Virus record (IMG/VR): IMGVR_UViG_2859799533_000007
Length of the DNA: 23,282 bases
DNA from: a virus
Taxonomy: Duplodnaviria; Heunggongvirae; Uroviricota; Caudoviricetes
Direction: 5' to 3' (one strand)
Below are positions 8,865-23,282 of this stretch, piece by piece. Numbering within the stretch: position 1 is the first letter of the stretch; every line of letters begins with the position of its first letter. Both the position numbers and the translations under genes were made by a program. The notes under the pieces were generated by a model, which was given only the letters and a program-made list of their open reading frames with translations, searched no databases and was not told where the DNA came from.

Positions 8865-8874
8865 AAACCGGGAT

Positions 8875-9573
8875 TTACTGCGAAAGTTTATTAATGGAAA
8901 GGAAACCGCCAAAATTGCCGACATTCCTGCGCAGTTCACACCCGCGCATGCACTTGCTGCATCTGTCCTTACGGATATCCGTGGTGGGTTTATCGAACTC
9001 ATCCGCCACAGCCCCGCCCGTGTAACCACACTCATCAGAGCGGTAGGTCCACATACAGGTGTTCGCCAGCATGATACGACCGGGAAACAGCGCCCCGTCC
9101 GTCTCGGTCGGTGTAGCCAGCACAAACGAGGCCGTCATGGCTGTCAGCTGCGACATCTGCTCCACCACCCAGCGGTCACTCAGCTCCTGCTCCGGGTCCG
9201 CCTCCGGATTGCCCGCAACGAAATTCACCGCATCCAGAAAACGGGCATACACCCGGCGGCGGACCACCGTGGCCCCCACCAGACTCTGCAGGTCTTCCGC
9301 CATCCCGGTGACCAGACCGAACAGATTGGACACCGTCAGCGACGGTCTGGCACTGCTGCCCCGGCCGTTCATCTCAAAGCCGCTGCCGTCAATCGGGTAT
9401 GCCTCATACTTACGCCCCTGCCAGGTGACCGGCTCCCCTTTTTCATTCAGCTCATTACAGAAAAAATACCGCTCACCACCCTGCACCGTCAGGTCGATTT
9501 CCCAGAGTACCACCCGCGGTGACTGCTCTGACTTAACCGACTCGTTCAGCCTTTCTTCGCGAATATCCTGCAT
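8875..9573 (-). CDS. L: Minor tail protein L
   Basis: 232-aa ORF MQDIREERLNESVKSEQSPRVVLWEIDLT… with the C-terminal Cys cluster typical of lambda L; start overlaps the M stop (ATGA). Confidence 0.9.
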   Translation of the reverse strand: MQDIREERLNESVKSEQSPRVVLWEIDLTVQGGERYFFCNELNEKGEPVTWQGRKYEAYPIDGSGFEMNGRGSSARPSLTVSNLFGLVTGMAEDLQSLVGATVVRRRVYARFLDAVNFVAGNPEADPEQELSDRWVVEQMSQLTAMTASFVLATPTETDGALFPGRIMLANTCMWTYRSDECGYTGGAVADEFDKPTTDIRKDRCSKCMRGCELRRNVGNFGGFLSINKLSQ

Positions 9574-17328: not shown

Positions 17329-18833
17329 TCATGGCATGGCCATGAGCATTTTCACGTCCGCATCACCGTCTGCTGACGTCTGTGACACGCCACCCCGCAC
17401 CGCTGCCGGTGAATGATTCGCCATGAAATGTTCAAACAGGGCGGTTGTGGATGCAGAGACCGGTTCGGCCTTACCTGATCCCGCAGCCAGCACCGCCCGG
17501 GCGTTCTCCACGGTCATTCCCGGGCAGGCCGCCAGTTTTTCAGCCTGCGCTTCTGCCCCTTTTGCCTCATCCAGGGCCATGATCTGATCACGAAGTGAGG
17601 GCCCGGCATCCGCCAGTGGTGCAGCCGCCAGGATCGGGCGGGCTTTTTCCACCGTCATCTCCGGCATCGCCGCCAGCGTTGCCGCCAGTTGTTCACGACC
17701 GTTCGCTTCTTCACACGCCATAATGCGATCGGCTTCACTCTGCGCGGATGCCACCGGCTGCTGCGGTGCCGCCGCGGCCAGAATCGCCCGGGCCTGTTCA
17801 ACGCTCATGCCCTGTTGCCCTGCCAGCATCGTGGCAAGCTGTTCACGTCCTTTCGCTTCCTGGCATGTCAGGATCCCCATCACTCGCTGGTTCTCCTGCA
17901 CGGCGGCTTCCGTTGCAGTTAATTGCGGCATAGTGCCTCCTCTGACATTACTGTTCAGCGCCGTGGCCATCACACTGATGGCATCCGACGCATTGATTAA
18001 TTCATCCGCCAGCCCGGCCTCAATGCCGGACTGACCTTCAAAAACAGCGGCCTCTGTTCCCGTGACTGCATCAACAGACAGACCGGTAAACATCGCCACT
18101 TTTTCGGCAAACATCCGGCGCGCCGCATCAATCCGCTGCTGCATGTCCTGGCGAACCTCTGCCGGCAACGCTTCAAACTGATTGCCATCCACCTTGTGCG
18201 CCCCTGAGTAAATCAGCGTGATATCCACACCGGCCTGCGCCAGATGACCGGCATAGCTGACATGGCTCATCATCACGCCAATGGAACCGATACGGGATGT
18301 CTGGGTAACCAGCCGTCGGGAGCAGGCCGACGCCAGCAGCATGGCCGCAGAACAGGCCGTGTCATTACACAGTGCCCAGACCGGCTTCTGCTGCCGGAGG
18401 CGGTAAATCATGTCAGCGCAGTCAAACACGCCGGCGGCCTGCCCGCCCGGACTGTCAATGTCCAGCAGTATGCCCCGCACCTGGCTATCTGCCATTGCCT
18501 GCTGAAGACAGGTGACAATGCCGTCATAGCCAGTCATTCCGGAAAATGGCCGCATCCCCCCAGCCGGTGCACCAGCGTGCCGGTCACCGGCAGTACCGCA
18601 ATACCGTTCACCACCCGGTAAACACGGGCCGGTCGTTTACCTCCGGCCATGTACTCGTCCGTTTCAGCCAGCATCCCGGGAGCATCAAGCTGTACCTGCT
18701 GTTGCGGTACCGAAAGACTTGCTGCCCCCATCTCGCGCCCCAGCGCGCAAAAGAAAACCCGCGCATAGGCGGGCTCCAGAAGCAGCGGTTCATTGAATGC
18801 TGCTGCAATAATGTGTGAAAGATTACGTCTCAC
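17329..18833 (-). pseudogene. C: Head maturation protease C with nested scaffold Nu3 (S49/ClpP-like), frameshifted
   Basis: N-terminal segment (…AAFNEPLLLEPAYARVFFCAL…) is in a different frame from the rest (…SGMTGYDGIVTCLQQA…KPVWALCNDTACSAA…). The frames join at the C6 run at 18556-18561. Confidence 0.85.
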
Positions 18834-19595
18834 GTGGTGTTGTCTCCTCTTCCGGCCTGCGACTCTCCGCTATCTGCTGCTGATACGCCTGCGCTATCCA
18901 CACCGGACGTGAGAGTCCGGCTTTTTCCCGCTCTGCAGATTCCCTGACCTGCTGGCAGAAAATGTCCTGATAATCCTCGCCCATCAGCGCCAGCTCTTTC
19001 TCATACGTGCTCAGTCCGGCCTCAATGCGCATCACTGATTCCTGAACCTCCTTGAGCCCGTCAATGGCCATTCTTCCGGCTCCAATCCACTCAGCCCGTG
19101 ACCAGGCTGATCGCGCCTGATAAAAATCAAACCGTGCCCGTGGCGGACGAATAATCCCCGAAGAAGTGCCTCTTCCAGCCAGCAGGAAAACATCTGCGTG
19201 GCCAGCCGGGACGCAATAAATTTTCGCCGCCCCATAAAATAGCGCCACGACTCATTGGCGGATGCGCGGGCACTTGAGTAACTGACCTTCGAGTAATCAC
19301 GGGACAACTGTTCGTAGGAAACGCCAAGACCGGCGGCGATATACCGCAGCAGCGCCTGTTCAAGCGCCGAAAATCCATTGTCTGAATCCTGCGCGGTCTG
19401 AAGTTTCAGATCATCACCGGGGAAAAGGTGCGGAATTTTGACACCGCCCAGCATCACGCTATTCGTGTCATACCAGGTGGAGAACTTATCCAGAATATTA
19501 ATAAGCGGATTATCCTTCTGCCCCTGCGGCGCACCGGCGATATATTCAAAGGCCTTTTCGGTATCAAGGTCACTTTCAATCGTCGCTGCATACAT
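18823..19595 (-). pseudogene. B: Portal protein B, 3' half only, with an internal frameshift
   Basis: Two frames carry portal-like sequence and join at the C4 run 19156-19159. Only ~257 codons are present (lambda B is 533 aa); upstream of 19595 the frame reads AT-rich non-coding sequence. Confidence 0.75.
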
Positions 19596-19783
19596 CGCCT
19601 TTATGAAAAGACAGGAAAAAATAAAATTTAAAAACAGTACATTACGAATGCTCAGACCTATCGTTTAAAGGAGTCGCAATACACACTGCAATACACGATT
19701 ATTTATAAGATGAGCGGCATCCGTCATAAAGCTGGTGGATGCTTTTTCTATGCATATATGCACAGTTTTAGTGGGCGTTAATG

Positions 19784-19807
19784 TCGATATAGGGATCCCC
19801 ATATCGA
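19784..19807. repeat. 24-bp near-perfect palindrome TCGATATAGGGATCCCCATATCGA (operator-like)
   Basis: Differs from its reverse complement at one symmetric position pair only. Confidence 0.6.
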
Positions 19808-20025
19808 GATTGGATACCAGGCTTTTTTAATCAGGCTGGTGGGCTTTACCTGTTTTGTATGAGTGGTCATCATGACCATGTCATAACAAAAACCCCATAT
19901 TCGTGGTTTTTCTGTGTCGGGCTATTCTGTCGTTGCTGTGCTGATTTGGCTGGTGGGCTGAATCATCATTACGGCGATGCAGCTATGTAGACGTTCCGGC
20001 CTCCTCAAATTGAGGATTGTGGAAG

Positions 20026-20187
20026 AATCAATGGGTTAGTCTTACTTTCCCGACATCCCCCAATGGGGGGTTTCGAAACAATCAATAGCTTAGGCTTACT
20101 TCCCCGATTTCCTGCATTGCAGGTTTTCGAAATAATCAATGGGTTAGGCCATCGTGCAATTTTGCACTTTGCCAGCCAGCGCAATGT
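20026..20187. repeat. Tandem array of three 54-bp direct repeats, each with an internal GC-rich hairpin
   Basis: Units begin AATCAAT at 20026, 20080 and 20134. Units 1 and 2 share ~40 of 54 positions, with the hairpin arms changed in a compensatory way (CCCCC-AAT-GGGGG versus CCTGCA-T-TGCAGG); unit 3 diverges after position 15. Confidence 0.7.
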
Positions 20188-20397
20188 CGCGTTATCAGTC
20201 CTCAGATGTGAGGGATGTAGCCAGCTTTTCCCCCAGTGGGGGATATCCAGCACCGACGGCTTAACTGTGCGTGCCAGCACAAGGTAGCCTTGAACTACTT
20301 ACTGCATCCCATCTTACAGGCCGTGCCTTCCTGCTTAACTTTTTGCAATGCAACAAGTCAGCCAGCGCAATTTTGCGTTATCGGGAATATCAGCAAG

Positions 20398-20679
20398 TTA
20401 CCGCCGCAATCGTTCCGGCTTCTTCCACTGGTAAGTATTTTTCGCGCTCTCCCTCCGTTGTTGAGAACGGCGACGATATGCCAGCAACTCAAGGACTCTT
20501 GTTCGTATGTTGCGCATATCCACGCCGTTAAGCTCAATACCGTCACGGCGCATCACCTCAGCCACTACACGCACATAATTATCTGCGGTCACGCTGTCCG
20601 GCTGCGTGGCCTGTTCGTCATGCTGCTTGCTGATTCCACAAGCACGGCGGATTAATCGCAGTATTTCGGATTCAGTCAT
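20398..20679 (-). CDS. Hypothetical small basic protein (93 aa)
   Basis: ATG-initiated ORF with coherent charged composition (MTESEILRLIRRACGISKQHDEQ…); weak RBS; I do not recognise a homologue. Confidence 0.4.
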   Translation of the reverse strand: MTESEILRLIRRACGISKQHDEQATQPDSVTADNYVRVVAEVMRRDGIELNGVDMRNIRTRVLELLAYRRRSQQRRESAKNTYQWKKPERLRR

Positions 20680-20803
20680 AGCGTACTACGTTACTTATCT
20701 TTATTCGGCTGCAACTTATCCGGTACGTTTCCGGCAGTTTCCATCAGATAATCGGACAGCTGAGGTGTACTGGCAATAGCGGACACTACCATTTGTTCTT
20801 TTT

Positions 20804-21622
20804 TTAAGCAGCCATCTGATGATATTTTTCCCTGAAGGCTGCCGGGGAGATATTCCCCAGACGAGAGTGACGACGCTGACGATTGTAGAAAATCTCAATG
20901 TATTCCCGTATTACTGAGATGGCTTCATCCCGGTTATTAAAACGATAGTGGCTCAGGCTCTCATTTTTCAGCGTTCCCCAGAAGCTTTCCATCGGAGCGT
21001 TGTCGTAACACTGACCTTTACGCGACATTGATGTTTTCAGACCAGACTGCTCCTGTATGACCCGGTAATCGTATGCGCAGTACTGTGAACCTCGATCAGA
21101 GTGGTGGATTAGCCCGGCAGGTGGGCGCTGGCTCCTGAGCGCCATAAACAGGGCTTTACCTGTCAGCTCTTTTGTCATGCGCTCTCCCATGGCGTAGCCG
21201 ACAATTTCGCACGTATAAACATCTTTGATGCCAGCGAGGTACAACCATCCCTCCTGTGTGGCAACATACGTCAGGTACGCCACCCAGACCTGATTTGGTG
21301 CTGTAGGAGCGAACGTCTGGTTCAGCAGATTTGGCGCAACTGGCAGATTGTGGTTCGGGTTCGTAGTCGCTCTGAACTTGCGTTTCTGCTTACAGCGTAG
21401 CCTTAGCTCCTTACGAAGACGTGCCAGTCGGTCACGACCAACGATGATGCCATTCTCTGCCAGCTCCGTCTGGAGCCGCCGGGTTCCATATGTTTCGCGA
21501 GTGCGGATATGTGCCACCTTAATCTCCAGTTTTAGCCGCTCATCACTTTGTTTTCTGTCTGAGGGTTCATGCTGTACCCAGTTGTAATAACCGCTCCTGG
21601 ATACACCAAATACCTGACACAT
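20804..21622 (-). CDS. IS3-family transposase OrfB (DDE domain)
   Basis: 272-aa ORF …HHSDRGSQYCAYDYRVIQEQSGLKTSMSRKGQCYDNAPMESFWGTLKNE…; the frame is open upstream toward the frameshift window. Confidence 0.9.
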   Translation of the reverse strand: MCQVFGVSRSGYYNWVQHEPSDRKQSDERLKLEIKVAHIRTRETYGTRRLQTELAENGIIVGRDRLARLRKELRLRCKQKRKFRATTNPNHNLPVAPNLLNQTFAPTAPNQVWVAYLTYVATQEGWLYLAGIKDVYTCEIVGYAMGERMTKELTGKALFMALRSQRPPAGLIHHSDRGSQYCAYDYRVIQEQSGLKTSMSRKGQCYDNAPMESFWGTLKNESLSHYRFNNRDEAISVIREYIEIFYNRQRRHSRLGNISPAAFREKYHQMAA

Positions 21623-21657
21623 CGCTTCAATGGGAAATTGTTGTCGCCATTGTTCGA

Positions 21658-21960
21658 TTAACGCGTATTTTTCAGCGACTCCTGTGCAAAATACGCTGTT
21701 GCTTTTTTTAATATATCTCGCTCAAGGCGAGCTTCATTTAACGCCTTACGCAGTTGCAGAATTTCAGATTCCAGTTCAGCCACCGTGCGGGAACCAGGAG
21801 TACCGAGCCCTTTTCTGGCGGCGGTAACCCATTGTCCTAAAGTGCCTTCAGGAAGGGATAATCGGGAAGCGCCTTCACTGATCGAAAGTTGATTTTCAAG
21901 AACCGTTCTGACAGCTTCGGCTTTGAACTCTTTAGAGTAACGTTGGTTTTTTCTGCTCAT
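21658..21960 (-). CDS. IS3-family transposase OrfA (helix-turn-helix plus leucine zipper)
   Basis: 100-aa ORF MSRKNQRYSKEFKAEAVRTVLENQLSISEGASRLSLPEGTLGQWV…; an A7G slippery run (plus-strand T7 at 21703-21709) sits near its 3' end. Confidence 0.9.
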   Translation of the reverse strand: MSRKNQRYSKEFKAEAVRTVLENQLSISEGASRLSLPEGTLGQWVTAARKGLGTPGSRTVAELESEILQLRKALNEARLERDILKKATAYFAQESLKNTR

Positions 21961-22115
21961 TATTAGCTCCTTCTGATGCCATTCTATTTCAGGAAGGAGT
22001 GTCCGTTAAACTCAGGCTACCTCAATCAGCGCCAGTCAGTCAGCCGGAGCAAAAACAGAAGCCCCACTCATTCCGGAACAACCTTCTTAATAACCCATTT
22101 CAACGAGAAAATCCT

Positions 22116-22385
22116 ATGTCAGAAATAAAATCGCTGGTCACTGCTGAGGCAGTGAAGGAAGTCCTGCGCTCTGAAGAAGTCCGGAGCGCACTGAAACAGC
22201 AACTTCGGCAGAACCTTGAGGCGCGTCTTGATGCAGAAGTGGATTCAATTCTGGATGAACTGCTGGGCGCACCGACTGTTCCGGAGCCGGAAGGCATTGC
22301 GGATGACAGTGCTGTTTCAGATGGCGTCGGGTCTCAGCCTGACGGTAGTGAAGGGCCTCAGCCTGACGGCGAAATGATGATGTAA
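22116..22385 (+). CDS. Hypothetical acidic protein (89 aa) upstream of the holin
   Basis: ATG at 22116 within the longer track ORF; MSEIKSLVTAEAVKEVLRSEEVRSALKQQLRQNLEARLD… with an acidic C-terminus; weak RBS. Confidence 0.45.
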   Translation: MSEIKSLVTAEAVKEVLRSEEVRSALKQQLRQNLEARLDAEVDSILDELLGAPTVPEPEGIADDSAVSDGVGSQPDGSEGPQPDGEMMM

Positions 22386-22460
22386 CCATGCGCAGGGGGT
22401 GTCGGTGTGAGCTGATGCCCCACTTGTTGTTGTGAGCTTCCGGATTGCGGGAGACGGGGT

Positions 22461-22620
22461 ATGTACCAGATGGAAAAAATCACAACAGGTGTGTCATACA
22501 CCCGTCAGCGGTGGGAACGGGCTACTGGTTCCTGCAGTTGCTGGACAGGGTTTCCCCGTCTCAGTGGGCGGCAATAGGCGTACTGGGGAGTCTGCTGTTT
22601 GGGCTGCTGACATATCTGAC
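22461..22620 (+). pseudogene. Class II holin (phage 21 / Stx-phage S-type), frameshifted and cut by an IS element
   Basis: [14 protein letters not shown] in one frame continues as [39 protein letters not shown] in another; the shift is at the C3 run 22501-22503. The dual-start MYQM motif and transmembrane core are typical; the C-terminus is replaced by IS sequence from 22621. Confidence 0.75.

Positions 22621-23282
<662 letters not shown>

Follow-up and report, generated by a model that had tools for sequence, protein, structure and literature searches.

The break in the lambda-type portal gene B of this prophage is not a lesion made by an IS element but the attR junction left by the site-specific integration of a helper-embedded PICI satellite (HE-PICI). 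The satellite, identified from its right end only, is assigned on its attachment sequences to the site group B:Phage_portal_2:241, and the locus very probably descends from a lambda-type prophage with an HE-PICI in its portal gene that was later rearranged by IS600, IS911 and IS1 in the Shigella lineage, a history whose order of events and single inversion we infer. The 23,282-nucleotide stretch analysed here (the window) comes from the Shigella-lineage chromosome CP026866.1, which it matches at 100% identity across 14,251 bp; among the sister genomes, CP026795 belongs to S. boydii ATCC BAA-1247. The Shigella-like context proposed by the original prediction is thereby borne out, and all the features that it named are present where it placed them or a few bases away.

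The portal remnant (18534..19601, (-) strand) retains the gene from about profile position 238 onward and consists of three ORFs split by frameshifts (19032-19595, 18823-19248, and 18534-18833); the Phage_portal_2 (Pfam) match of ORF 19032-19595(-) covers profile positions 238-354 of 354 only. The remnant aligns colinearly with intact portal genes as far as 19601, and portal-gene homology ends at this very base in every colinear E. coli prophage match, which sharpens the earlier placement of the end near 19600. The window lacks the portal 5' half, W, A, and Nu1, again as first reported, and none of them occurs in the next 6.3 kb of CP026866.1 on the right. It could be supposed that an IS-mediated deletion truncated the portal gene and removed W, A, and Nu1, the adjoining 1.1 kb being unrelated filler, given that three IS elements lie inside 4 kb of an IS-rich genome. 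We consider this extremely improbable: position 19601 is without any IS end; the break falls on a 13-bp direct repeat, which in E. coli EC28 flanks a full 10.9-kb integrase-bearing element occupying the same site, and there the portal 5' half and intact W and terL follow beyond the element; and the junction sequence and arm motif match those published for HE-PICIs. Moreover, E. coli genomes without IS600 at this place show the same junction, and where E. coli genomes hold the complete satellite followed by the portal 5' half, W, and terL, the junction has no IS in its vicinity. The portal break is not IS-driven. The DNA next to the break was thus sized correctly at about 1.1 kb (1159 bp, and not lambda head DNA), but it is not unrelated: it is the 3' end of the satellite.

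The attR core, CATACATCGCCTT (19589..19601, unstranded), was aligned with the attR and attL of the EC28 element and with the intact portal gene of 55989. The identity block of site group B_Phage_portal_2_241, published as 'aaggcgat' (PMC10111431 SuppFile1), equals the reverse complement of 19594-19601, AAGGCGAT, and the ORF beginning in the att core aligns from profile position 238, against a group site near 241. The 52-bp attR arm is identical at 52/52 positions to the published B_241 attR arms (PMC10111431 SuppFile4 entries). The HE-PICI-specific doubled attP arm motif, TGTATTGCAGTGTGTATTGC (19676..19695, (-) strand), lies 81 bp from the core centre at 19595 and has one exact match in the window, where shuffles expect 0. 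In HE-PICIs the doubled motif tgTGTATTGCantgTGTATTGCa occurs on both sides of the attP centre, at 81 +/- 2 bp on the upstream side and at 132 +/- 2 bp on the downstream side (PMC10111431); the downstream copy falls here in the lost integrase-side arm, and in the EC28 relative it is found 132 bp from the attL core centre. Satellite and portal gene are also co-oriented, the 93-aa gene and terS stub described below being encoded, like the portal gene, on the (-) strand.

What is left of the satellite is its right (3') end (19602..20760, (-) strand), comprising the attR arm, a non-coding tail, the gene for a 93-aa protein, and the end of terS, colinear with the EC28 element and 97.9% identical to it over window positions 19000-20760, a span that includes about 600 bp of portal. 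The 93-aa protein (20398..20679, (-) strand; phrog_1561, E 1e-55) is conserved and is encoded by the last PICI late-zone gene; Pfam, NCBIfam, and PDB sequence searches with it returned no match. Relatives of the tail/93-aa region were detected in 1501 of 5426 E. coli genomes, most of them matching the 93-aa gene only. The satellite small-terminase gene terS (20691..20760, (-) strand) is reduced by IS600 to its last 22 codons and stop, and the translation of this stub, LSDYLMETAGNVPDKLQPNKDK, is identical to the C-terminus of the EC28 satellite TerS. No integrase, AlpA, primase, or attL of the satellite was found in the window, and the four-zone layout (Integration, Bro, Replication, Late) with integrase and AlpA is absent from it and present in the full-length EC28 relative. 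As only the Late-zone end remains, the window holds the remnant of an HE-PICI member and not a functional one. A lambda-type cos was sought in the satellite tail by short-word BLAST against two helper-prophage cos regions and the lambda cos, and by a cosN pattern search, which gave only chance 8-15-mers; an Rfam scan of 19400-22700 at E<=1 gave no family, C4/isrK included.

Published examples of group B:Phage_portal_2:241 are Eco14781.11, Eco10269.11, and Sbo61.12, the last in CP026875.1 (Tommasini, Mageeney & Williams 2023, PMC10111431). The satellite described here resembles them in the 8-bp identity block, the 52-bp attR arm, the doubled motif at 81 bp, the lambda-family portal target, and co-orientation, and, like the full-length E. 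coli relatives, it ends with terS and the 93-aa ORF. It differs in that the last 1.16 kb only survives, cut by IS600, with the integrase, AlpA, Bro, replication, and capsid genes and attL lost, and it differs from Sbo61.12 in its helper prophage, as judged from the portal flank. The HE-PICI survey was seeded with integrase sequences (PMC10111431), and a stub without integrase, such as the one found here, was therefore out of its reach. Gram-negative PICIs of the EcCICFT073 / Nissle type, which are chromosomal, share the late zone of this satellite (SSB, capsid, decoration, terS, the 93-aa gene, and the non-coding tail), the module being situated beside narP in Nissle and beside clpS in 11A20CPO008. 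Unlike this satellite, however, they use chromosomal sites and split no helper gene, and they are without the doubled attP motif (PMC10111431). A parallel to the decay seen here is found in E. coli VL7S7 (NZ_CM177009), where the same satellite at the same portal site is likewise IS-truncated and joined to a prophage Q-gene fragment; there, however, the IS is IS911 and not IS600, and the cut falls after the satellite HTH-regulator gene and not in terS; the event is an independent one.

The non-coding tail contains three tandem 54-bp units (20002..20147, (+) strand), each with a 13-bp palindrome whose inner changes are compensatory and with a conserved TTTCGAAAnAATCAATGGGTTAGG. Each unit resembles about 50 bp inside lambdoid roi/antirepressor genes, the matches inside roi genes being 96% and 88.7%. 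Diverged satellites have tails with arrays of 1-3 such units, and among the tail boxes of the satellite family there are three palindrome types, with fully compensated inner bases and shuffled order. The counterpart of the box in helper phages is located about 130 nt inside the roi/antirepressor (Rha-ANT) genes, on the strand antisense to satellite transcription, and in the integrated state the array lies immediately upstream of the 3' half of the helper's portal gene and of its head genes. Roi binding was reportedly described by Clerget and Boccard in 1996. The array could conceivably be a modular device that senses or interferes with different helper phages, by offering putative decoy or operator sites to Roi-type DNA-binding proteins or by giving rise to an RNA antisense to roi, although we hold this to be doubtful. 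RNA folding of the array was not distinctive on either strand (z = -1.4 and -1.8), and no co-occurrence with a matching roi in the resident helper was seen, the EC28 helper being a Rac-type prophage at ttcA without roi. A coding role for the (+) open frame through the boxes was dropped, there being no Pfam domain at E<=1. These roi-like palindromic box arrays in the satellite tail may merit follow-up.

Beyond the terS stub the sequence is shaped by IS elements. The IS600-like element of the original prediction is a complete IS600 of 1264 bp with both terminal repeats (20761..22024, (-) strand; Pfam HTH_Tnp_1 and rve; IS600 by RefSeq annotation), with orfA at 21658-21960 and orfB at 20804-21622, both on the (-) strand. 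Its flanks, AGC and ATC, show no 3-bp target duplication, as would suit a copy formed by recombination better than one that simply inserted. Both IS600 junctions are common to four Shigella-lineage genomes, the sisters of CP026866.1 being CP026797, CP026872, and CP026795, and were found in none of the 5426 E. coli genomes. On the far side lies a 596-bp DUF1378'-DUF826-holin' fragment, on the strand opposite to the head genes. It is made up of the 3' end of a DUF1378 gene, 22 codons cut by IS600 (22025..22090, (+) strand; the match to the cM8a prophage starts inside the annotated DUF1378 at 8873-9067); an intact 89-aa DUF826 gene (22116..22385, (+) strand; Pfam DUF826, E 3e-36; 99.7% DNA identity to the cM8a prophage); and a P21-type class II holin gene of which the first 53 of 71 codons are left (22461..22620, (+) strand; Pfam Phage_holin_2_1). 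The holin had been described as of phage-21 type, on the opposite strand, cut by an IS911-like element and preceded by IS600 at about 440 bp, and each of these points holds: it starts at 22461(+), stops at 22620 against IS911, and its start is 437 bp from IS600. A 1-bp deletion at about codon 15 (A missing after 22502) interrupts the frame, the reference holin having 71 aa; the family domain is recognised and the full 71-aa frame is not present, so the holin gene is a pseudogene fragment.

The IS911 fragment (22621..23282, (-) strand) belongs to the orfB side, retains the right terminal repeat, has the end TGAAGTGGTCAAC..., and is 99.7% identical to RefSeq-annotated IS911 over 955 bp. In CP026866.1 it is 955 bp long and stops at about 23574, truncated by a complete IS1, after which zinT comes next; a full IS911 is expected to measure about 1250 bp. 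Comparison with the colinear O104:H4 prophage, in which both modules are present, shows that head genes and holin fragment have the opposite relative orientation here. All three IS junctions (both sides of IS600, and IS911) connect unrelated DNA, with no target duplications. Together with the inverted lysis fragment, this makes IS-driven inversion and truncation the best reading for 20760-22621; that part of the earlier proposal of an IS-driven inversion and deletion of the late region stands, and the portal break, being the satellite attR, is taken out of it.

In its late-region fragments bounded by IS600, IS911, and IS1, with lysis and packaging lost, the locus resembles other IS-eroded defective lambdoid prophages of Shigella, of which the IS600-flanked stx locus of S. 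dysenteriae 1 is an example. Unlike that locus, it has no toxin genes, and the nearest relatives of its lysis fragment are stx-less. A descent of the fragment from a Shiga-toxin-converting phage, with the Q-stx region lost through IS600, is in our estimate very unlikely. The DUF1378-DUF826-S21-type holin arrangement is indeed that of Stx phages, and most of the matching isolated-phage records are Stx-converting; the prophage also adjoins yecD, whose neighbour yecE is a known Stx-phage attachment site. Against this, the prophages nearest to the fragment (99.7% and 99.0%) have no stx and carry Q, three tRNAs, a SASA esterase, DUF1378, DUF826, and the holin, and identity to Stx phages is no higher than 85% across the fragment and 92.6% across its holin part. 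The DUF826-holin fragment is best matched by stx-less lambdoid prophages of the same gene content, an outcome that the original prediction had itself set against its Stx hypothesis. In the window and the flanks examined we found no stxAB between Q/tRNA genes and an esterase-DUF1378-DUF826-S block, and closest identity is not to Stx phages. The window has no toxin-like ORF, as first noted. Remnants of Q, stx, R, and Rz and a second IS600, suggested as things to look for beyond the window edges, did not appear: none of the four genes left remnants in the window or the flanks examined, and the adjoining 6.3 kb on the right and 6.8 kb on the left hold no second IS600. With this an unsupported Stx inference is removed.

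The first step in the history of the locus is shown by its sequence: the satellite's tyrosine integrase inserted it at the 8-bp core AAGGCGAT in portal gene B, co-oriented with the late genes, and this split the portal gene at 19601. The following course of later events would account for the rest. One IS600 copy may have entered terS of the satellite and another the DUF1378 gene of the prophage, which directly precedes DUF826 and the holin gene S, and homologous recombination between these inverted copies would have flipped the intervening DNA, leaving DUF1378'-DUF826-S inverted and abutting the terS stub. IS911 would next have entered the holin at codon 53, and IS1 would have truncated IS911, joining it to the zinT region. 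It is possible, if rather unlikely, that the DUF1378'-DUF826-holin' fragment came instead from a different lambdoid prophage of the same genome by IS600 recombination between distant loci, with no local inversion; neither the reciprocal IS600 joint nor the lost portions of prophage and satellite were found, which leaves room for such an origin. The zinT and yecD flanks stand inverted when compared with K-12, so that after a local inversion the reciprocal joint would most likely lie about 100 kb away, beside yodB/serU. Shigella-lineage genomes have many IS600 copies and several lambdoid prophages, and in CP026795 IS600 recombination has since put 5.2 kb, with unrelated TonB-receptor DNA, between two direct copies at the same joint. 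Identity to the O104:H4 prophage is 99.0% for the lysis fragment versus 95.9% for the head genes, a mosaicism that does not allow the two to be assigned to one ancestor. Yet a single inversion between the terS and DUF1378 copies reproduces the order and orientation exactly, and the fragment sits at its expected place in the late region, between the head genes and the chromosomal flank; we therefore prefer the local inversion.

Whatever its path, the prophage is now a dead remnant, with tail and head genes left and the packaging, lysis, and regulatory modules gone, and the satellite stub is without integrase, replication, or packaging genes. Point decay continues, with frameshifts in the portal remnant and the holin and, in this strain only, a D->Y change of the first DDE residue of the IS600 OrfB transposase (WVAYLTY versus WVADLTY in the sister genomes). 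The biology is ordinary, that of IS elements decaying a prophage and its satellite, and the kind of satellite is already known. The locus nevertheless preserves a dated series of decay steps common to four genomes and is a useful lineage marker. The clean end of a phage late gene beside seemingly 'unrelated' DNA may be the att site of an embedded satellite and not a deletion endpoint, and since surveys seeded with integrases do not see stubs that lack one, IS-rich genomes such as those of Shigella probably hold more helper-embedded satellites than have been counted.

Compared by megablast with 5426 complete E. coli genomes, the colinear lambda-type tail and head modules of the window all end their match at 19601, and the portal remnant ORF (19032-19595, minus strand) covers positions 238-354 only of the 354 in the Pfam Phage_portal_2 profile. 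Window 19000-20760 is colinear with E. coli EC28 at 97.9%, and in EC28 the portal gene is interrupted by a 10.9-kb same-strand element encoding a tyrosine integrase, an AlpA-like HTH protein, a BRO-N protein, an Icd-like protein, a primase, and an SSB, along with a major capsid protein, a head decoration protein, an HTH regulator, a small terminase, and a 93-aa ORF; past the integrase lie the intact portal 5' half, W, and terL. An alignment of the window junction, both EC28 junctions, and the uninterrupted portal of strain 55989 places the direct repeat CATA[C/A]ATCGCCTT (window 19589-19601) at both ends of the element. Helper-embedded PICIs (HE-PICIs) are satellites with integrases that target the late genes of prophages (Tommasini, Mageeney & Williams 2023, PMC10111431). 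Reverse-complemented, window 19594-19601 reads 'aaggcgat', the identity block of their site group B:Phage_portal_2:241 (PMC10111431), and the window's reverse complement equals the published attR arms (agcattcgtaatgtactgtttttaaattttattttttcctgtcttttcataAAGGCGATgtatgc) over 52 of 52 satellite-side bases. The HE-PICI-specific doubled motif tgTGTATTGCantgTGTATTGCa occurs a single time in the window, as an exact match (19676-19695, minus strand; 0 expected by chance). Between its near edge and the core centre are 81 bp, and in EC28 the partner motif lies at a distance of 132 bp from the centre of the attL core; the published distances are 81 +/- 2 bp and, for the partner, 132 +/- 2 bp (PMC10111431). 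Judged from these sequence features (identity block, 52-base arm, and the motifs at 81 bp and, in EC28, 132 bp), the portal break is a site-specific attR of group B:Phage_portal_2:241. An IS deletion endpoint at this position is ruled out, since att block, arm, and motif fit a site-specific attR. The original prediction of an IS-driven rearrangement of the late region is supported for the IS600 joints and the inversion (see below), but not for the portal break; the portal truncation, the IS600, the opposite-strand DUF826-holin fragment, and the IS911 end on which it was built are all present (Pfam, megablast, and reading of the ends).

The 1.1 kb beyond the break, earlier taken for unrelated DNA, is what is left of the HE-PICI: its last 1159 bp, colinear with the EC28 element and comprising a non-coding tail, the 93-aa gene (20398-20679; phrog_1561), and the end of terS, whose last 22 codons are identical to those of EC28. 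E. coli VL7S7 (L002 8607-12245) carries an independent IS truncation of the same portal-embedded satellite, by IS911; there the cut falls after the satellite HTH-regulator gene and joins a partial Q gene.

The non-coding tail contains three tandem 54-bp units (20002-20147; also at locus L001 13018-13155), each with a 13-bp palindrome whose inner bases are fully compensated (CCTCAAATTGAGG, CCCCCAATGGGGG, CCTGCATTGCAGG) and after it a conserved TTTCGAAAnAATCAATGGGTTAGG. A stretch of roughly 50 bp, some 130 nt into the roi/antirepressor (Rha-ANT) genes of lambdoid phages, is matched by unit 1 at 96% and by unit 2 at 88.7%; the matching strand is the one antisense to the satellite genes. A pattern scan of IMG/VR (loci L024-L046) found these boxes only in satellite tails adjoining homologues of the 93-aa gene, and diverged satellites hold one to three of them, the three types occurring in differing combinations. 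The array has no match in Rfam, does not fold distinctively, and makes no sense as coding sequence, and a search of the EC28 helper for a roi gene found none; an operator/decoy or antisense role for the boxes is speculative. Other repeats of the tail (window 19821-19959 and 20173-20382) are 25-mers containing GGCTGGTGGGCT, 114 bp apart, and palindrome-bearing 24-mers CAGCCAGCGCAAT(G/T)T(C/T)GCGTTATC, 186 bp apart; the latter, with the palindrome GTGCAA(A/T)TTTGCAC, are kept in diverged satellites.

A complete IS600 (20761-22024; 1264 bp) retains orfA, orfB, and the terminal repeats at its two ends. On its left is the satellite terS and on its right the 3' end of a DUF1378 gene of prophage origin; the flanking triplets, AGC and ATC respectively, show no target duplication. 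None of the 5426 E. coli genomes contains either junction. The frameshifted portal ORF, looked up as an exact protein, identified four Shigella-lineage chromosomes, among them the source chromosome CP026866.1 (100% identity across 14,251 bp of the window) and CP026795 (S. boydii ATCC BAA-1247); the IS600 joint is common to three of these. In CP026795 (L009 1122-8835), 5.2 kb bracketed by two direct IS600 copies separate the satellite stub from the DUF826-holin fragment, which marks IS600 as a live recombination substrate. That insert contains a further IS3-family element and a TonB-dependent receptor gene that is split. The window's OrfB (20804-21622) reads WVAYLTY against WVADLTY in CP026797, CP026872, and CP026795, with the first DDE aspartate changed from D to Y, and from its sequence this transposase is probably inactive.

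Beyond IS600 the plus strand carries an 89-aa DUF826 ORF (22116-22385) and a P21-type holin that starts at 22461, 437 bp from IS600, and stops at 22620 at the IS911 end. The O104:H4 prophage (L005) matches this lysis fragment at 99.0% and the head genes at 95.9% with the two in the opposite relative orientation to those of the window, thus confirming the proposed inversion. If IS600 copies in the satellite terS and in DUF1378, inverted with respect to each other, had recombined once, exactly the observed order and orientation would result. Besides its IS911 truncation, the holin remnant is frameshifted by a 1-bp deletion at 22502/22503 (about codon 15). Sister genomes (L007, L008) have an additional IS66-family insertion in it, duplicating the sequence equal to window 22495-22510, and CP026797 also has an IS110-family element.

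The suggested Stx-phage origin of the fragment found no support in the search proposed for it, whose result is the one named beforehand as refuting it: the best matches of 22025-22620 are prophages of strain cM8a (99.7%) and of O104:H4 strains (99.0%), which carry Q, three tRNAs, a SASA-family esterase, DUF1378, DUF826, holin, and lysozyme without stx. Most matching records among isolated phages are Stx-converting; their identity is no higher than 85% across the fragment and 92.6% across its holin portion.

Decay extends to the head genes (window 17329-19595): the portal remnant lies in three ORFs, and the S49 prohead protease keeps its full 501 aa in CP026797 and CP026795 but is broken by a frameshift (99 + 402 aa) in the window strain and CP026872. 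Beyond the right edge of the window, IS911 proves to be no more than a 955-bp fragment cut by a complete IS1, followed by zinT-msrQ-msrP-hiuH-hprRS (L006 1-6313); the left flank (L016 13752-20600) holds IS1, a yecD gene interrupted by an IS110-family element, and aspS-nudB-yebC-ruvC. Over 6.3 kb of right flank and 6.8 kb of left flank there is no further IS600 copy and no remnant of Q, stx, R, or Rz. On the K-12 map about 100 kb separate these two flanks, and measured against that map one is inverted with respect to the other, which implies a large IS-mediated inversion that had one of its ends in the prophage; the parts missing from prophage and satellite may therefore have been relocated by it rather than deleted. 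What remains at this locus is the IS-truncated stub of a satellite of known kind, a degenerate member of that kind, within an IS-eroded prophage.
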